This document shows, piece by piece, positions 4,612-56,826 of a DNA stretch of 56,857 bases. Below the pieces are notes generated by a model. That model had not been told where the DNA came from and searched no databases. It worked only from the letters and a program-made list of their open reading frames with translations. A program made the translations under genes and the position numbers. Source of the DNA: Elusimicrobiota bacterium (lineage in GTDB: Bacteria > Elusimicrobiota > Elusimicrobia > Elusimicrobiales > UBA9959); assembly GCA_018829985.1 (NCBI GenBank), contig JAHJSU010000333.1, forward strand, positions 1 through 56,857, written 5' to 3'. Position 1 is the first letter of the stretch; every line of letters starts with the position of its first letter.

Positions 4612-5985
4612 ATGGCGGAAAAAACTGAGGACCAACTATTAAATAACGGGGAAAAAATGCAATCATTAACGGACTTATTCAAGATTCAGGACCTCAAGAA
4701 AAGAATATTATTCGTTATCGGGGCGCTGGCCGTTTACAGGCTTGGCGCCGTTATCCCGATCCCCGGCATCAACACCGCGGCCCTGCAGGCCATATTTCAG
4801 TCCCAGCAGGGCAGCTTGCTGGGATTCCTGGATATTTTCTCAGGCGGGGCGCTTAGCAGGTTCTCCATCTTCTCATTGGGCGTCATGCCTTACATCAACG
4901 CCTCCATCATAATGAGCCTGGTGCAGGGAGCGCATATCTTCCCGCTCCTCGACCATCTCCAGAAAGAAGGCGAATCCGGCCGTAAGAAGATCACGCAGTT
5001 CACCAGGGTGTTCACGCTTTTTCTGGCCGCTTTCCAATCGCTGGGCCTGACCATAGCCCTGACCAAGATGTCGCCGGCCGGCGGGGCTCCGATAGCGCCC
5101 AATGCCGATTTCATGTTCTACTTCGTTACCGTGCTTACGCTTACCACCGGCACTGTCTTCGTCATGTGGCTCGGCGAGCAGATAACCGAGCGCGGCATAG
5201 GCAATGGTATCTCACTCATTATATTCGCCGGCATTGTGGGCGGACTGCCCAGCGCCATTGCGAGCATGGTGAAACTGGTGCAGATAGAGGAAATAAGCCT
5301 GCTTACCGGGCTGACGATAATTGCCGTAGTGATGCTGGTCGTCGGATTTGTCGTGTGGGTGGAAACCGCGCAGCGCAAGATCCCCATCCAGTACGCGCAG
5401 CGCCAGGTGGGACGCAAAACGTACGGCGGGGTCAGCACTTTCCTGCCGCTTAAAGTGGACCAGTCCGGCGTTATCGCCGTTATTTTCGCGGTCTCGCTCA
5501 TAAGCGTGCCTTATACCATAACCCAGTTCAATCCCAACGCCGTCTGGGCGCAGACGGTTATGTCTTTCATGGACCACGGTAATATGGTTTACCAGCTTAT
5601 GTACGTGGCGCTTATTGTCTTTTTCTGTTACTTTTACAACTCGGTCAGCATCAACCCCAAGGATCTGGCCGAGAACATGAAGAAGTGGGGCGGATTTATC
5701 CCCGGCATCAGGCCGGGCGAGCCCACGGCTCATTACATAGAATGGGTGATGAACAGAATAACGCTGGGCGGCGCTCTTTTTGTGGCCATGATAGCGGTCC
5801 TTCCCGATTATATGCGGGACAAATTCAATGTGCCGTTTTACTTCGGCGGCACGTCGCTGTTGATAGTGGTCGGCGTCGCGCTGGACACGGTTGCCCAGAC
5901 GGAAGCCCACCTTATAATGAGGAATTACGAAGGTTTCTACAAGAACTCCAAGATCAAAGGCCGCTGGTTCAACGTGGGGAGTTAA
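4612..5985 (+). CDS. secY: Preprotein translocase subunit SecY
   Basis: Multi-TM protein with SecY motifs (SIFSLGVMPYINASII, GEQITERGIGNGISLIIF). Alternative start at ATG 4657. Confidence 0.93.
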   Translation: MAEKTEDQLLNNGEKMQSLTDLFKIQDLKKRILFVIGALAVYRLGAVIPIPGINTAALQAIFQSQQGSLLGFLDIFSGGALSRFSIFSLGVMPYINASIIMSLVQGAHIFPLLDHLQKEGESGRKKITQFTRVFTLFLAAFQSLGLTIALTKMSPAGGAPIAPNADFMFYFVTVLTLTTGTVFVMWLGEQITERGIGNGISLIIFAGIVGGLPSAIASMVKLVQIEEISLLTGLTIIAVVMLVVGFVVWVETAQRKIPIQYAQRQVGRKTYGGVSTFLPLKVDQSGVIAVIFAVSLISVPYTITQFNPNAVWAQTVMSFMDHGNMVYQLMYVALIVFFCYFYNSVSINPKDLAENMKKWGGFIPGIRPGEPTAHYIEWVMNRITLGGALFVAMIAVLPDYMRDKFNVPFYFGGTSLLIVVGVALDTVAQTEAHLIMRNYEGFYKNSKIKGRWFNVGS

Positions 5986-6174
5986 TCCGAAAATTGCGGT
6001 TGAAATCGGTTCCCCCAAGCCTGGGGGTAATATCCAAGGCAATTTTCGGAAGGCTAAAGGATAAAGGCTTAAGGATGAAGGCAAGACACGGCGAATACAA
6101 GGGCTTTTTTTCGCCCTTTAGCCTTTATCCCTCATCCTTTATCCTTCCCGAAAAATTCAACTGAATTTTCCGGG
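5986..6174. repeat. Composite three-hairpin element (CCGAAAATTGC / AGGnTnA heptamers / CCCGAAAAATT), copy 1
   Basis: Hairpin 1 is CCGAAAATTGC..GCAATTTTCGG. Hairpin 2 is AGGCTAA-AGGATAA-AGGCTTA-AGGATGA.. vs CCTTTAGCCTTTATCCCTCATCCTTTATCCTT. Hairpin 3 is CCCGAAAAATTCAACTGAATTTTCCGGG. Confidence 0.85.
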
Positions 6175-6192
6175 TTAACGGAGGTGATGGGC

Positions 6193-7029: not shown

Positions 7030-7791
7030 ATGAACATGGTGGAAATTAAAACCGCCGCCGAGCTTGACAAAATAAGGCAGGCGTCAAAGATAGTGGCCCG
7101 GACGCTGGCGCTTTTAAAGAACAATATCCGGTCCGGCGTTTCCACCGCCTATTTGAACGCTCTGGCGGAGAGCGAGATCAGAAAAAATAACGCAGTCCCG
7201 GCCTTTCTCGGTTACCGTGGTTATCCCGCAACGCTTTGCGTGTCCATAAACGAGGAAGTGGTTCACGGCATGCCAAACGCCCGGCGGTTTTTGAAAAACG
7301 GGGATGTGGTAAGCCTGGACCTCGGAGTTGTTTACGCGGATTTTTACGGCGACGCGGCCGTGACGGTGGCGGTCGGCGAAGTGAAGCCCGAGTGTTCCAG
7401 GCTGATTTCGGTCACGGAACAGTCCCTTGCCAGGGCTGTTTCAACCGTTAAAAACGGCGCGTGCCTGGGGGATGTGTGTTACGCGGTGGAAAGTTTTGTG
7501 GTTCAAAAAGGGATGTCCGTGGTCAGGGAATTCACCGGGCACGGCATAGGACGCCGCCTCCATGAGGAGCCGTCCATCCCTAATTACGGCAAACCCGGCT
7601 CGGGCGTAATGCTTAAAGTCGGGATGACGCTTGCCATCGAGCCGATGGTGTGCCTGGGCCGGCCGGAAGTGAGTATAAAAAACGACGGCTGGACGGCCGT
7701 TTCCGTGGACGGCAGCTGCGCGGCGCATTTCGAGCATACGGTGGCCGTGACGGAAAACGGATGCGAAATACTTACTCTGATTCAAGATTGA
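7030..7791 (+). CDS. map: Methionine aminopeptidase, type I
   Basis: FTGHGIGRRLHEEP and AHFEHTV metal-ligand motifs. Synteny. Confidence 0.93.
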   Translation: MNMVEIKTAAELDKIRQASKIVARTLALLKNNIRSGVSTAYLNALAESEIRKNNAVPAFLGYRGYPATLCVSINEEVVHGMPNARRFLKNGDVVSLDLGVVYADFYGDAAVTVAVGEVKPECSRLISVTEQSLARAVSTVKNGACLGDVCYAVESFVVQKGMSVVREFTGHGIGRRLHEEPSIPNYGKPGSGVMLKVGMTLAIEPMVCLGRPEVSIKNDGWTAVSVDGSCAAHFEHTVAVTENGCEILTLIQD

Positions 7792-7854
7792 AGATTCAAG
7801 ATTTAAGATTGCCGGCATCTCCCAATCTTAAATCCGTAATCTTTAATCTTCAAT
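7779..7854. repeat. Word-hairpin (GATTnAA words) whose left arm starts in the last codons of map
   Basis: GATTCAAGATTGAAGATTCAAGATTTAAGATTG vs CAATCTTAAATCCGTAATCTTTAATCTTCAAT. The same word family occurs at 31476-31565. Confidence 0.75.
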
Positions 7855-7890
7855 TACGGTAATATTATTAATTTGATATAATATACGGAT

Positions 7891-8392: not shown

Positions 8393-8396
8393 TAGG

Positions 8397-8485
8397 CAGT
8401 AACCAGTAATCGGTAACCAGTAAAAAGCGGGCAGCAGACAGATTTTGCGGATTTACCGGTAACCGGTTACTGATTACCGATTACT
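8397..8485. repeat. Word-hairpin (CAGTAAC words), rpmJ-rpsM spacer
   Basis: Phased heptamers CAGTAAC-CAGTAAT-CGGTAAC-CAGTAAA vs TTACCGGTAACCGGTTACTGATTACCGATTACTG. The same family occurs at 9372-9451, 25183-25250 and 26134-26161. Confidence 0.8.
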
Positions 8486-8506
8486 GCAGTATTTTAAGGA
8501 GAAAGT

Positions 8507-9371: not shown

Positions 9372-9451
9372 CTGTAACCGGTACCCGGTAATCGGTAAAA
9401 GGGAGTTTCAACTATTCGTTACTGGTTACTGGTAACTGATTACCGGTTACC
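9372..9451. repeat. Word-hairpin (GGTAAnC words), rpsK-rpsD spacer
   Basis: CTGTAACCGGTACCCGGTAATCGGTAAAA vs CGTTACTGGTTACTGGTAACTGATTACCGGTTACC. Confidence 0.75.
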
Positions 9452-9469
9452 ATAGCTTTTTGGAGGATT

Positions 9470-10137: not shown

Positions 10138-11115
10138 ATGCCTAGTTTTTCAAAACAACTGATAATCCCCGAAGTTATAAACGCGGAGGAAAAGACCAGG
10201 ACCGAGAATTACTCTAAATTCACCGCCGAGCCCTATGAAAAGGGCTACGGCCATACCATAGGAAATTCCTTGAGGCGCATACTTCTGTCCAGCCTTGACG
10301 GCGCGGCCATAGTGGCCGTCAGGATAAAGGGCGCCAGGCACGAGTACTCCGCCATCAACGGCGTTGAGGAAGACGTCATCAACATGCTCTTAAACCTTAA
10401 AAAACTGAGGGTCCGCCTGACCGGCGAAGGCCCTGAGACCCTTACGTTGTCGGTGCGCGGCAAAAAAGAGGTGAAGGCCGCTGATATCAATGAAAACGCC
10501 AGCGTTACGATCATCAACAAAGACCTGGTCATAGCGCACGTCGAGTCGGGCGCCGTTTTTGAGGCGGAGCTTGAGATCGCCAGAGGCGCCGGTTACCTGA
10601 CTTCGGAAGAGATCAGGGCCCGCATGAACCTCCCGATAGACTTTATCCCCATGGACGCGCTTTTTTCTCCCATACAGAAAGTGCATTATACCGTGGAAAA
10701 CGCCAGAGTCGGCCAGCGCACGGACTATGACAGGCTGGTCCTTGAGGTATGGACCGACGGCAGCATCAGTCCGTCGGAAGCGGTGACAAAGACCGCCTCT
10801 CTTCTGCGCCGTTCCATCATCCCATTCCTGCCCGAAGCCGAAGCGTCGGGAGAGCCGGCCAAGGAAGCGGCTGCCGAGGCCGGGGAGAAGGGGATCAAGC
10901 TCAAAAGCACGCTGGAGCAGGGCGTGGAAATGATAGAACTTTCTTCGCGCGCTTCCAACTGCCTTAAAGTCGCCGGCATACGCACGATAGGCGAGCTGGT
11001 GGGAAAGACCGAAGACGATCTGCTGGCCGTTAAGAATTTCGGTAAGAAATCACTGGACGAGATCAAGGAAAAACTCAAAGAAATGGGACTTGAACTCGGG
11101 ATGAAGCCGGAATAA
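10138..11115 (+). CDS. rpoA: DNA-directed RNA polymerase subunit alpha
   Basis: GYGHTIGNSLRRILLSS N-terminal domain. C-terminal domain LSSRASNCLKVAGIRTIGELV...NFGKKSLDEIK. Confidence 0.95.
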   Translation: MPSFSKQLIIPEVINAEEKTRTENYSKFTAEPYEKGYGHTIGNSLRRILLSSLDGAAIVAVRIKGARHEYSAINGVEEDVINMLLNLKKLRVRLTGEGPETLTLSVRGKKEVKAADINENASVTIINKDLVIAHVESGAVFEAELEIARGAGYLTSEEIRARMNLPIDFIPMDALFSPIQKVHYTVENARVGQRTDYDRLVLEVWTDGSISPSEAVTKTASLLRRSIIPFLPEAEASGEPAKEAAAEAGEKGIKLKSTLEQGVEMIELSSRASNCLKVAGIRTIGELVGKTEDDLLAVKNFGKKSLDEIKEKLKEMGLELGMKPE

Positions 11116-11301
11116 CCCGAAAATTGCGAAGCAATTTTCGGAAGGCTAAAGGATAAAGGCTGAAGGATGAAGGAAAAGATACAGCAGATACGCCCGCTAT
11201 TTCAGCGGGCGCTCGCCGAACTGGCGAGCGATTTTTTCCGCCCCTTAGCCTTTATCCCTAATCCTTTATCCTTCCCGAAAAATTTAACTAAATTTTTCGG
11301 G
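11116..11301. repeat. Composite three-hairpin element, copy 2 (rpoA-rplQ spacer)
   Basis: Same architecture and near-identical arms as 5986-6174. The loop carries a terminator-like stem. Confidence 0.85.
11209..11238 (+). terminator. Intrinsic-terminator-like stem-loop plus T-run inside composite element copy 2
   Basis: GCTCGCC-GAACT-GGCGAGC followed by ATTTTTT. Confidence 0.45.
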
Positions 11302-12707: not shown

Positions 12708-12842
12708 CCGACGGCGCTTGGAGTTTTTCCGCCTAAGGCGGACCCGTAGGTTGTTTGGCGGGCGATCCTAATGCAGCTTAGTACAGGATCGGATTTCCGG
12801 AACTCAGGCGCTTAAAGTTTCCCGCTTAAAATCGAGTCTTTG

Positions 12843-13023
12843 CCCGAAAATTGCAGTTGAAGTCGTCCGCTGAAGGCGGATATCCATTGCAATTTTCGAA
12901 GGATAAAGGATGAAGGCTAAAGGATGAGGGTAAAAACACTGGAAAACAAAAAGATTTTTCCGTCCCTTAGCCTTTATCCTTTAGCCTTAAGCCTTCCCGA
13001 AAAATTCATCTGAATTTTTCGGG
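12843..13023. repeat. Composite three-hairpin element, copy 3 (mreB-mreC spacer)
   Basis: Same architecture. Partial copies lie at 24245-24345 and 36699-36779. Confidence 0.85.
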
Positions 13024-13040
13024 TTATATAAGGAAAGACT

Positions 13041-22705: not shown

Positions 22706-22985
22706 CAGAGAGTAAGTGGAACGGAAGTCTAAAGTGGAGAGTAAATAAAACAGAAGTCTAAAGTAAAAACGCAAGTCGAGAGTGGAGAGTCTAAAGTCTA
22801 AAGTAAACAACTTAATATTTCTACGTACTTTAGACTCTACACTTTAGACTCTAGACTTTCGACTTTACTACTCAGCCACAAAGTCACAAAGACACGAAGG
22901 AAATCAGACAACAAACCGTTTGATCCATAAACTTTCTTTGTGCCTTGGTGTCTTAGTGGCTGAGTAGTTACCTTTAGACTTAGAT
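22706..22985. repeat. Second copy of the AGTCTAA-word hairpin (murI downstream), with MITE-B nested in its right arm
   Basis: Same words and the shared 26-mer with 1238-1456. Confidence 0.8.
22865..22971. mobile_element. MITE-B copy (~107 bp), nested in a word-hairpin downstream of murI
   Basis: Termini ..ACTACTCAGCCAC / GTGGCTGAGTAGTTAC. Internal 8-mer-word hairpin CCACAAAG-TCACAAAG-ACACGAAG vs CTTTCTTTGTG-CCTTGGTG-TCTTAGTGG. One mismatch to the copy at 56719-56826. Confidence 0.75.
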
Positions 22986-23582: not shown

Positions 23583-23671
23583 GGGAAGTAGGCAGGGGAT
23601 AGTAGATGGTAGGTAGTAGGTGGTAGGTGGGGCTACTAGATAAATTGCTAGAATAGATTTAGAGGTGGATT

Positions 23672-24240: not shown

Positions 24241-24383
24241 CGTCAAGGCTAAAGGACAAAGGATAAAGGCTAAGGGACAGAAAAATCTTTTTGTATCTGC
24301 TGTGTTTTTTCCTTCAGTCTTCATCCCTCATCCTTCGTCCTTCCGAAAATTGCCATGGATATTTTTGTCCGTATGTTTTTGCT

Positions 24384-25175
24384 ATGAATAACGATTTCAA
24401 CTGCCTGCCCGCCTCCGCCAAACAATCCGGCGGATCCGCCTCTGGCGGAAAATTATTAAATAAACTGAAGATATGTAACACTTGGCAGGCGGGCAATTTT
24501 CGGGTTAGGGTCGCCTATGAGCCCGGAGAGGGCCGCTTGTGGAAAGGGCGGGGCATCGTCACGGACCTTTTCAGATTTTCCAATACCGTCTGCGCGCTTT
24601 TAAAAAGCGGCAGAAAAGATATCCGGATCTACTCCGGTCCGGACCACGCCGCCGCGGTCAAAGCTTTGGAAAAAGGCTCGGACCTTTTTTCCGAGATAGA
24701 TTTCCCTCCAGAAGTGGATAAATACGATAACTCTCCGTATACGGCCCTTTACGGCTCCGACGCGTCCCGGCCGGCGCTTATAGTCACCAATTCCGGCTCC
24801 CCGGCCGTAATGGCGCTTGGACGCGCCCCCGAGGTCCTTATAGGGTGCTTCGCGAATATGCCGTATCTCGCCGAATACTGCCGCAAATTCCCCATGGACA
24901 CGCTGATAGTGCCGGCCTGCCTGTATTACGACAGGACGCATGTCGAGGATTTCATCTGCGCCCGCGCTTTGGCCGAGGCCATAGAGGGCCGGGATTCCTT
25001 TGAGGCCGCCGTCGAGGAGATACACAACAGTTCCAGGGTGCTGGATTTTATGGCGTACCGGCCCGAGACCGGCAAAAGGGACATGGAGCTCATCCTGAAA
25101 AAGGGCAACATGCCGGTGGTGCCGAAGGTGAGATTATTGGGCGTGCACGGAAAAATAGCGGATGCGCGCGCGTAA
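24384..25175 (+). CDS. ComB-like 2-phosphosulfolactate phosphatase family protein
   Basis: Blocks IVTDLFRFSNTV, DNSPY, LIVTNSGS and HVEDFICA resemble the ComB family (from memory). Start uncertain. The first ~25 codons are REP-repeat derived. Confidence 0.55.
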   Translation: MNNDFNCLPASAKQSGGSASGGKLLNKLKICNTWQAGNFRVRVAYEPGEGRLWKGRGIVTDLFRFSNTVCALLKSGRKDIRIYSGPDHAAAVKALEKGSDLFSEIDFPPEVDKYDNSPYTALYGSDASRPALIVTNSGSPAVMALGRAPEVLIGCFANMPYLAEYCRKFPMDTLIVPACLYYDRTHVEDFICARALAEAIEGRDSFEAAVEEIHNSSRVLDFMAYRPETGKRDMELILKKGNMPVVPKVRLLGVHGKIADARA

Positions 25176-30356: not shown

Positions 30357-30395
30357 ATCCGGAGGAAGGGGTATAGGGGAAATCAAATATCAAAG

Positions 30396-30508
30396 GTAAC
30401 TACTCAGGTCTGTCGTCGTAGTGGCAGAGTTTACTCTGCCCAAAAAGGCAAAGCAAGCTTTGCCACTACAAAAAATACGTGAAAAATACGGAGAACCTGA
30501 GTAGTTAC
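30396..30508. mobile_element. MITE-A copy (113 bp) in the ftsH-cdaA spacer
   Basis: Same TIRs. 8-bp TSD TATCAAAG at 30388-30395 and 30509-30516. Internal sub-hairpins GGCAGAG..CTCTGCC and GGCAAAGC..GCTTTGCC. Confidence 0.9.
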
Positions 30509-30662
30509 TATCAAAGATTAAAAATCAAAAAGACAGTTTAAGAAGAGGAAAAAGCAAATGTCAAAGATTAAAAATCAATATGAATGACGCGGAAATTTAT
30601 GGTTTTTGGGTTTTTAGCGGGTATTTTTAAGATTTGATATTTAATTTTTTGATTTAACCAGT

Positions 30663-36698: not shown

Positions 36699-36785
36699 CC
36701 CGAAAATTGCAGTTAGAGCCGGTTATTATAGAGAAAGCAACGGATTAAATATCCATTGCAATTTTTGGAAGGCTAAAGGTATGTT

Positions 36786-39430: not shown

Positions 39431-39525
39431 AGTAGGTAGTAGGTAGAATGTAGTAGGTAGGAAGGGAAAGAGCACAGATTCTTTTTTAATGAAACCCTGT
39501 CTGCTGCCTACTATCTACTGTCTAC
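39431..39525. repeat. Word-hairpin (GTAGGTA words)
   Basis: Phased GTAGGTA-GTAGGTA-GAATGTA-GTAGGTA vs CTGCCTACTATCTACTGTCTAC. The right arm reaches the stop codon of the response-regulator gene. Confidence 0.8.
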
Positions 39526-45617: not shown

Positions 45618-46600
45618 ACTTTATAAATCAGCTACGGCTTTCAGGAGAGCGCTTGAGGATCGTCTTAAAGCCATTGCCGGCGGCAGCATGGACCTGCCCC
45701 GGCTTAGAAAATCCGTGGCTTTTGAAAGACTGCTGGCCCGGTTTTTTGCCGATACCGGCTCAGCCTGGCTGCTGAAAGGCGGTTATGCCCTGGAAATCCG
45801 TTACAGGGGAAGCTCGCGTTCCACAAAAGATATGGATTTCACGCTGCCGAGCGCTTTAATGCTCCCCGGAACCAATAACGCGGACCCCGCCGCTATACAT
45901 GTTGTTATTGGGCGTATTGCGGCCAGGGAGCTTAATGACTGGTTTGAATTCCGCGTAGGCCCTGAAGCGCAGGAAATTGACGGCGCGCCATACGGCGGGT
46001 ACAGGTTCCCCATGGAAGCGGTTGTGGACAAGCGGCAGTTCTCAACTTTTCATTTTGATGTGGCCGTGGGCGACGCTGTAATGGGTGAGCCCGAGTGGCT
46101 TTTGGGCCACGATATGCTGTCCTTTGCCGGAATCCCGCCGGCAAAGATAGCCCTGCTTCCAAAAGAGCGGCATTTTGCGGAAAAAATTCATGCTTACACT
46201 TTCCCGCGCGGTAATGTCCCCAATTCAAGAACAAGGGACCTGGTGGACATGGTGATTCTAATACAAAAAGGGCTGTCAAAACAAAAAACATCGGAAGCAA
46301 TTAAGGCCACGTTTAGTAACTACTCAGGTTCTCCGTATTTTTCACGTATTTTTTGTAGTGGCAAAGCTTGCTTTGCCTTTTTGGGCAGAGTAAACTCTGC
46401 CACTACGACGACAGACCTGAGTAGTTACCACGTTTAACAGAAGGGGGACTCACGCTGTTCCTAAGGCGCTGGAGTATCCGCCGGATAACTGGAAACTGCC
46501 GTTTAAGAATCTTGCCGAAGAAATAGGGCTTGAGCCCAAAGCAATGGACGCTGCTTTTGCCGTTGTGACGGATTTCTGGAACGAACTTTTTAAGGAGTAA
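45604..46600 (+). pseudogene. abiEii: AbiEii-family nucleotidyltransferase toxin gene, interrupted by a MITE
   Basis: KGGYALEIRY...RSTKDMDF NTase motif. The ORF now ends at 46437 in MITE-derived sequence. Removing 121 bp restores a 291-aa ORF ending at 46600. Confidence 0.8.
46316..46428. mobile_element. MITE-A copy (113 bp) inserted in abiEii
   Basis: 13-bp TIRs GTAACTACTCAGG/CCTGAGTAGTTAC. 8-bp TSD CACGTTTA at 46308-46315 and 46429-46436. 113/113 identical (reverse orientation) to 30396-30508. Confidence 0.9.
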
Positions 46601-56718: not shown

Positions 56719-56826
56719 GTTACTACTCAGCCACAAAGTCACAAAGACACGAAAGAAATCAGACAACAAACCGTTTGATCCATAAACTTTCTTTGTGCCT
56801 TGGTGTCTTAGTGGCTGAGTAATTAC
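56719..56826. mobile_element. MITE-B copy (~108 bp) just after the AEP-helicase stop
   Basis: ~99% identical to 22865-22971 over ~98 bp. Confidence 0.75.

Follow-up and report, generated by a model that had tools for sequence, protein, structure and literature searches.

A dispersed family of composite three-hairpin repeats, probably mobile, that often adjoins stop codons in groundwater Elusimicrobia

Background

Small jumping repeats are known in other bacteria, and the element described here, a non-coding unit of ~190 bp (up to ~330 bp with nested inserts) built of three hairpins, M1-M2-M3, is a new and very modular example of them. Its nearest architectural analogue appears to be the BOX repeat of pneumococci and S. 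suis, which has the layout boxA-boxB(n)-boxC (Croucher et al. 2011, PMC3049150), and the BIMEs of E. coli also come close (PMC2817692). Like BOX, the element is a small intergenic composite with two distinct end modules and a middle of variable length; both are strongly folded, both are regarded as non-autonomous and dependent on mobilisation in trans, and both insert into one another and into operons. High copy number is a further likeness (more than 100 copies, to be read beside the 65 module junctions counted here). In S. suis alternative ends occur around the same middles, while here it is the middle hairpins that alternate, and a REP hairpin can replace modules. The likeness is of architecture only (no BOX sequence was compared), since the two occur in different phyla with no sequence relation. 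The BOX middle, moreover, consists of tandem 45-nt boxB units, whereas here it is one long foldback of 7-nt words, and the end modules here are full palindromes with compensatory covariation. Finally, insertion flanks gave no clear evidence for BOX (PMC3049150), whereas here a 4-bp duplication is statistically supported.

Other families share different parts of this behavior. MITEs are likewise short and non-coding, with terminal inverted repeats, many dispersed copies and variable presence at orthologous sites, but the ends of the present element are hairpins and not simple repeats. Insertion of IS5 produces a 4-bp duplication of the target 5'-YTAR-3' (Lee et al. 2016, PMC5009759), and TTAA, TTAG, CTAA and similar 4-mers are duplicated here too; however, the duplications CTGA, TTGA and GTAA are one base off YTAR, and the genome yielded no member of the IS5 family with matching ends. 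REP, BIME and REPIN-RAYT systems (Nunvar et al. 2010, PMC2817692; Bertels and Rainey 2011, PMC3116915) also consist of extragenic palindromes in mosaic units placed directly after stop codons, with compensation keeping the hairpins, and REP-like units and RAYT-like genes are present in this genome as well. The element differs from them in its target duplication and in its stems, which are AT-rich instead of GC-rich; it also lacks a GTAG head, and neither M1 nor M3 flanks a RAYT gene. The GGGAATC heptameric arrays of Xanthomonas are intergenic, lie in convergent pairs near the end of a neighbouring gene and can form a stem-loop (Rehm et al. 2015, PMC4692102). Convergent intergenic 7-nt arrays foldable as a stem-loop are found here as well, but the Xanthomonas arrays are G-rich, proposed to form quadruplexes, devoid of constant ends and not shown to be mobile (PMC4692102), while here AAGGNTN words are bracketed by M1 and M3. 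No link of Elusimicrobia with MITEs or REPs was found in the literature searched. Eukaryotic foldback transposons have long inverted terminal repeats made of short tandem repeats, are kilobase-sized, and some of them carry genes; they resemble the present element in their tandem-unit foldback arms and their mobility, and no relation is implied.

Results and discussion

Copies in the analysed window

The window, that is the whole stretch of DNA that was analysed (56,857 nt, contig JAHJSU010000333.1), belongs to a 3.53-Mb MAG in 362 contigs from an uncultured groundwater Elusimicrobia, whose nearest relative is a groundwater MAG with a 92% identical RpoA. The following features were mapped in it:

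5982-5985, forward strand: left target duplicate TTAA of copy 1, including the secY stop TAA at 5983-5985
5986-6174, forward strand: copy 1 (M1 5987-6049, M2 6050-6146, M3 6147-6174)
5987-6049, forward strand: M1 of copy 1, hairpin CCGAAAATTGC / GCAATTTTCGG with a 41-nt loop containing a small CCCCCA..TGGGGG hairpin
6050-6146, forward strand: M2 of copy 1, imperfect long hairpin of 97 nt
6147-6174, forward strand: M3 of copy 1, 28-nt palindrome CCCGAAAAATTCAACTGAATTTTCCGGG
6175-6178, forward strand: right target duplicate TTAA of copy 1; the ribosome-binding site (GGAGG) and start codon of adk come next
11116-11301, forward strand: copy 2 (M1 11117-11141 with a 3-nt loop, M2 11142-11273, M3 11274-11301)
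11192-11237, forward strand: nested GC-rich hairpin doublet, another dispersed repeat, inside the M2 loop of copy 2
12843-13023, forward strand: copy 3, in the mreB-mreC spacer (M1 12844-12899, M2 12900-12995, M3 12996-13023)
24245-24504, reverse strand: inverted M2+M1 copy without M3 (M2 24245-24342, M1 24343-24503)
36699-36779, forward strand: truncated copy, M1 36700-36768 (47-nt loop) and the first 11 nt of M2

The three full copies, which measure 181-189 bp, had been proposed from the sequence with this tripartite layout, and all three were recovered at the same coordinates. Two partial copies had been proposed as well: the one at 36699-36779 corresponds to M1 with the beginning of M2, and the one placed at 24245-24345 is a genuine copy whose extent has to be corrected, because it is inverted, lacks M3 and runs to ~24504. 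The genes around the full copies encode SecY/Adk, RpoA/L17 (rpoA/rplQ) and MreB/MreC. Copy 2 adjoins the rpoA stop (11113-11115) and the rplQ start lies 15 nt downstream; directly upstream of the truncated copy there is again a stop codon, and the next start is found 6 nt beyond its end.

In M2 of copy 1 the 5' arm is made of AAGGNTN heptamers and the 3' arm of NANCCTT heptamers, with a centre that passes from A-rich to T-rich. The predicted fold of this copy consists of three separate hairpins on both strands (z = -6.7 and -7.5). The M1|M2 junction GCAATTTTCGGAAGGNTNAAGG is present 4 times in the window (at most 2 mismatches) and the M2|M3 junction with its palindrome 3 times, against 0.00 in 100 shuffles for each.

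Other small repeats later insert into the loops of the hairpins and lie nested there. In copy 2, the T-run and terminator-like stem that had been noticed are real: the second stem of the nested doublet (11210-11230) is followed by ATTTTTT and resembles an intrinsic terminator, and the doublet is a copy of a dispersed repeat, GCCCGCTATTTCAGCGGGC, with 19 copies in the genome. The REP unit reported in loop 1 of copy 3 (GTCCGCTGAAGGCGGA) is equally real, its core GTCCGCCT.AGGCGGA occurring 274 times in the genome, and the 139-nt M1 loop of the inverted copy is packed with nested repeats. The longest ORF after this inverted copy begins within the element (TTG at 24291). The sister protein matches only from residue 72 onwards, which puts the real start of the gene near 24504; automatic annotation would over-extend it.

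Genome-wide census and modular variation

Between 84 and 86 M1 hairpins were counted genome-wide, and a hairpin of AAGG words directly adjoins 67 of them (34 on one strand, 33 on the other). The 22-nt M1|M2 junction, with at most one mismatch, was found 65 times (34 plus, 31 minus), while a reversed control gave 0. M1 has the structure CCGAAAATTGC-loop-GCAATTTTCGG and M3 is a 28-nt palindrome, CCCGAAAAATTC-N4-GAATTTTTCGGG; the two are related palindromic end modules of 26-28 nt. The outer arm of M1, (Y)CCGAAAATTGC, and that of M3, GAATTTTTCGGG, are inverted copies with identical outer 8 nt, and together they make up the inverted repeat at the termini, (Y)CCGAAAA...TTTTCGGG. M2, in the middle, is a long imperfect hairpin with AAGGNTN heptamers in the 5' arm and complementary NANCCTT heptamers in the 3' arm.

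The order of the modules is fixed. Among purine-word hairpins, 34 have M1 at one end and M3 at the other, none has two M1 and one has two M3, so that the further copies with a conserved hairpin order on which the original prediction depended do exist. The unit is not always complete: 20 of these hairpins have M1 only and 14 have M3 only, a GC-rich REP hairpin replaces M3 in 5 that carry M1, and many word hairpins lack both end modules. At least three M2 subfamilies can be distinguished, and a few composites have the same M1/M3 ends with hairpins of other words between them. M1 loops fall into discrete classes, of 5 nt or less (25 copies), of 31-38 nt, centred near 34 nt, with a REP insert (21 copies), of 39-52 nt, centred near 48 nt (26 copies) and, the longest, of more than 52 nt with nested repeats (11 copies).

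If these similarities were only low-complexity word sharing, produced by local heptamer slippage without common descent, no fixed order of modules would be expected. Heptamer hairpins of other words do fill spacers genome-wide, and the number of heptamers per arm varies among copies with the two arms out of step, so that slippage does act within M2. However, the non-periodic M1 and M3 recur with identical junctions at 65 loci, the order is fixed, subfamilies exist, and one and the same M2 mismatch pattern is found with the same ends at unrelated loci numbering more than 60. Census and junction counts together refute pure slippage as the origin of the family, in agreement with the prediction, and we assign it a negligible probability.

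As an observation in its own right, heptamer-word hairpins in spacers are a habit of the whole genome. Other intergenic hairpins are made of different 7-nt words (AGTCTAA, GAATAGC, GATTCAA, CAGTAAC, AGTAGGT and others) and have no M1/M3 ends; in the window they lie at 1219-1474, 1663-1790, 7772-7862, 8394-8489, 9372-9452, 22709-22870, 23587-23633 and 39431-39463. The window also holds a 107-nt direct repeat, 98% identical (22865-22971 / 56720-56826), which is itself a word hairpin of the CACAAAG/CTTTGTG type, and a 116-nt inverted repeat, 100% identical (30395-30510 / 46314-46429, 15.8 kb apart), another small element in two copies.

Outside the host genome the M1|M2 junction was found in four relatives: two belong to the host's genus and have 9 copies and 1 copy, and two represent other genera of the family, with 4 and 2. 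It was absent from 36 further relatives; copy number thus differs 7- to 60-fold between relatives. Exact junction matches were confined to two Elusimicrobia MAGs when 185,579 species genomes were scanned, and a plasmid collection gave no match to the element. From these sequence comparisons the repeat family appears restricted to a single family-level lineage of groundwater Elusimicrobia. Its enrichment at contig ends is slight (4.1% vs 2.5%), and it is therefore not the main cause of assembly breaks.

Conservation and covariation of the stems

Compensatory changes were found in M1 and M3 and are absent from M2. For M3, 38 distinct sequences were compared, with arms picked by their likeness to the consensus and not by pairing: 98.2% of cells were paired, two-sided changes affected 8 of 12 pairs, and 40 doubly changed cells were counted against 9.2 +/- 2.3 in shuffles (0/500), a signal that is lost when the partner is slid. 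M1 showed 8 compensated doubles vs 0.66 expected, from at least 5 different events, together with 27 uncompensated singles; compensation was seen mostly in short-loop forms. Orthologous copies in two genera show compensated differences in both M1 and M3, and at a site common to two genera the element is better conserved than the coding flanks. The description of the family as conserved stems with exchangeable loops holds, as the M1 and M3 stems covary and the M1 loops come in the classes given above.

The long heptamer hairpin is present as predicted, but its stem is just ~78% paired. No variation was seen in the AAGG:CCTT and T:A pairs, and the variable word positions are systematically mismatched, with C opposite T and A opposite G. 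No compensation was detected in M2, where 474 cells were paired vs 486.6 +/- 3.5 in shuffles. As a speculation, a 35-bp palindrome with perfect pairing would suffer instability or cleavage.

Compensated pairing of M1 and M3, kept even in orthologous copies of two genera, conservation exceeding that of coding flanks, and a strong fold on either strand are what a structural module selected by the host could show, either in the polycistronic transcript or on DNA, with mobility being only its delivery. Candidates for such a function are an RNase III or other processing site, an mRNA stabiliser, a cistron insulator, a weak bidirectional attenuator or a protein-binding palindrome, and BIME, ERIC, Correia and BOX repeats are known to influence the transcripts containing them (PMC3049150). 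We nevertheless consider this reading unlikely, and part of the reason lies in the stems themselves. The long M2 stem has no compensation. Single mismatches on the sense strand (G.U 7, A.C 6) show no RNA-strand bias in a small, low-power sample. None of the three modules is followed by a T-run; a stem with a U-run is seen only in the nested foreign repeat of copy 2. Searches with Rfam gave no relevant family: in the window only tRNA reached the gathering threshold, with nothing relevant at E up to 1 either, and the copies produced only miRNA-precursor matches of 20-28 bits vs thresholds of 73-100. A strand-specific RNA role is not indicated. Two specific assignments were rejected as well, an Rfam RNA family, with no relevant score at the gathering threshold, and an intrinsic terminator, with no U-run after the stems of the element and an orientation that is random relative to genes.

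Target duplication and choice of site

We compared the 4 nt before (Y)CCGAAAATTGC with the 4 nt after ...TTTTCGGG in 32 full copies. They are identical in 8, while 2.2 are expected (permutation p = 1.5e-4), in a single register, and the total of matching flank positions is 81 vs 64.9 (permutation p = 5e-5); the target-site duplication that a mobile module should leave therefore brackets the whole unit more often than by chance. The duplicated 4-mers are CTGA, TTAG, CTAA, GTAA, TTAA, TTAG, TTGA and TTAA, and the rare pairs among them, such as CTGA/CTGA and GTAA/GTAA, argue that this is a true duplication and not an effect of common composition. Only a quarter of full copies have kept it exactly. 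Solo modules add little: solo M3 palindromes are rare and a duplication was seen in 1 of 25 candidates (p = 0.15), most of which were really M1 beside M2, while 2 of ~10 solo M1 copies, few for testing, have an exact duplication. When copy 1 is removed with one TTAA, the sequence reads secY-TAA-CGGAGGTGATGGGC-ATG, an ordinary tight operon junction.

The choice of target is marked. Of 57 copies, 19 have YTAR as their left-flank 4-mer vs 1.4% of intergenic 4-mers, and in 33 this 4-mer is a stop codon preceded by any base vs 4.5%; the stop codon of a gene adjoins one end of the element in 32 of 57. A TAAC-type flank is present also where no gene ends, so that the target itself accounts for it, and not annotation alone. 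Towards the other gene, the end of M3 lies 10-19 nt from the downstream start codon in 12 of 26 cases, and in the essential operons secY-adk, rpoA-rplQ and mreB-mreC the ribosome-binding site is not displaced, both of which would suit a host-selected module. Orientation relative to the flanking genes is, however, random (19 co-oriented, 17 anti-oriented, 9 convergent, 7 divergent), which speaks against such a module. The position at stop codons reflects a YTAR-like or stop-containing target, with no link to transcription. The 4-bp duplication of YTAR is a likeness to IS5 in behavior, and not evidence of membership in that family.

Empty sites and age of the insertions

The site-by-site comparison with sister genomes covered one syntenic 34-kb block. 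The rpoA-rplQ spacer measures 201 nt here vs 19 nt in the sister genome G002, where the site is empty, and the mreB-mreC site is empty in G002 too. In a second sister, G001, the orthologous spacer of window 24241-24503 holds no element and measures ~20 nt or less (the figure of <20 nt being the distance from the g25 stop to the first aligned residue of g26). The same junctions being empty or occupied by unrelated hairpins in sisters, no site requires the element, and this again speaks against a host-selected module.

Other copies are shared. Two of the copies in G001 fall at positions where the present genome has the element too (C121 with M1, C24 with M2); its other four copies have flanks that could not be joined on one contig of this assembly. 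Moreover, one insertion occupies precisely the same position in another genus, where the coding flanks are ~65-68% identical. Many insertions are therefore old, and the repeat family may now be dormant. For such old copies some function in the host keeps a small probability, even though no site needs the element.

Several further differences between spacers were recorded along the way. Spacers of the spc/alpha/mre block (window 470-27117 vs G001 C105 and G002 C13) differ greatly between the sister genomes. The adk-map spacer has 189 nt here vs -1 and 2 nt in the sisters; the secY-adk spacer has 198, 112 and 114 nt in the three genomes with unrelated fillers, independent elements having struck the same junctions. 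In the mreB-mreC spacer of G001 (locus L076, orthologous to window 12708-13040) a short-loop M1 with the compensated stem CCGAAAATTGT ATA ACAATTTTCGG stands at the same position as copy 3 and is followed by a different long non-heptamer hairpin and then by a REP hairpin, so that the end module is retained and the middle and far modules are swapped. Downstream of a composite shared between genera (G000 C62:12313-14211 vs G010 L064) there is a conserved non-coding stretch of ~45 nt, GTAATATTTGCGTAACAATCC..TTAAATATAG, and beyond it each genus has, at the same place, a different word hairpin, of GGTTCAN words in one and of GGATTCN words in the other.

A dispersed family with a fixed order of modules, a duplication signal, empty sites, lineage restriction and covarying stems has been found. 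Its copies are short, non-coding and dispersed, with terminal inverted repeats, target duplication and presence or absence at orthologous sites, as in MITEs. We therefore conclude that the element is probably a composite, non-autonomous, MITE-like mobile element that moves as one unit, makes a 4-bp duplication of YTAR-like sequence and settles on stop codons. The module had been described as mobile or templated: the duplication, the empty sites and the differences in copy number bear out the first term, while no link to a reverse transcriptase or a template was seen for the second.

Search for a mobilising enzyme

Transposases were searched for with the domains DDE_Tnp_1, DDE_Tnp_1_2, DDE_Tnp_4, Y1_Tnp and TnpB. 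No insertion sequence with CCCGAAAA ends was found, an absence that is weak evidence in an assembly fragmented into 362 contigs. Two DDE_Tnp_1 genes are IS1182-like with unrelated inverted repeats, and neither the IS5-type domains DDE_Tnp_1_2 and DDE_Tnp_4 nor TnpB were found in the genome searched. Distant pairs of end motifs with matching 4-mers, as an autonomous or cargo-bearing element would have, gave 135 matches that were noise-like and without pattern.

Eight Y1_Tnp genes are present, two of them RAYT-like, and this raises the question of whether a Y1 (HUH) transposase could carry the element in single-stranded form, in the style of REP/REPIN-RAYT or of an IS200/IS605 derivative, with M1 and M3 as the recognised hairpins. 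A hairpin at each end, the keeping of structure and not of sequence, and a conserved tetranucleotide (TAAC or TAGY) before M1 would all fit. Unlike in Y1 transposition, however, the two flanks of a locus change together from copy to copy as a direct repeat of 4 bp (CTGA/CTGA, GTAA/GTAA, TTGA/TTGA). The ends share their outer 8 nt in inverted orientation and so are symmetric, whereas IS200/IS605 derivatives have asymmetric ends with subterminal hairpins and insert 3' of a fixed tetranucleotide without duplicating it. Other repeats, in no case M1 or M3, lie beside the eight genes, the RAYT-like ones being bordered by REPs that start with GTAG, and no TnpB was found. We consider a Y1 route very unlikely. 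By the same observations three narrower candidates were rejected: RAYT/IS200-type mobilisation, in view of the other repeats at all eight Y1_Tnp genes; membership of REP/REPIN-RAYT, there being no Y1 gene flanked by M1 or M3 and no GTAG at the foot of M1 or M3, and a target duplication being present; and an IS200/IS605-derived palindrome-associated element, in view of symmetric inverted ends, the duplication and the failure to find TnpB.

The Y1 genes are of some interest by themselves. The RAYT-like ones (G000 C55:3354-3843, and a 179-aa ORF on the minus strand of C348) lie amid repeats GTAGCCGCAGGC..GCCTGCGGCTAC, and one is broken by a TAA stop; with their GTAG repeats they look like a classical REP/RAYT system for another repeat family. 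Two proteins of ~320 aa with an N-terminal Y1_Tnp (G000 C135:15951-16914, and C194 on the minus strand) are bracketed by the inverted repeat GGGGACGTTGC / GCAACGTCCCC.

Proposed mechanism

For a MITE-like mobile element, the data indicate that the three modules travel as a single unit and that insertion duplicates 4 bp (TTAA, TTAG, CTAA, CTGA and similar). The target is most often the stop codon of a gene, the left duplicate preserving the stop and the ribosome-binding site downstream staying intact, as is seen at copy 1. With stop and ribosome-binding site both preserved, the element can occupy very short spacers of essential operons, in either orientation. It would settle on stop codons because the target lies there and because insertion there is harmless, and once settled it would become a landing pad for other small repeats. 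The enzyme may be a DDE-type transposase acting in trans with an IS5-like target behavior, although none was found.

This DDE model leaves the full end hairpins and their compensated pairing unexplained, since the outer repeats are all that a DDE transposase needs. M1 and M3 could owe their lasting complementarity to a requirement that single-stranded or cruciform DNA form a hairpin or palindrome there, or alternatively to palindrome repair through template switching. In a stronger form of this idea the end modules would be something other than the usual binding repeats of a transposase, namely hairpins that must form in single-stranded or cruciform DNA to serve an undescribed mobilisation route or self-repair by template switching; the element would be specialised for stop codons, its insertion rebuilding the stop and leaving the next ribosome-binding site intact, and old copies in core operons would have been adopted by the host as spacers that process or insulate polycistronic transcripts. 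We regard this combination as rather unlikely.

Conclusions

Reading the element as a MITE-like mobile unit, an uncultured phylum has abundant small mobile DNA of its own. This partly accounts for the coding density of the genome, which is only ~78% with the simple codon-usage caller from which our gene calls come, and spacers of core operons measure 100-300 nt here vs 0-25 nt in sister genomes. What is unusual is the combination of three ordered hairpins, a mismatched stem of 7-nt words, terminal palindromes that compensate and a target at the stop codon. In practice the repeat family is a marker for this lineage of Elusimicrobia, and a source of assembly breaks (though not the main one) and of miscalled start codons. 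It also offers a compact model of how selfish repeats enter essential operons harmlessly, and for asking whether the mobilising machinery or the host reads the structure of a hairpin rather than its sequence.
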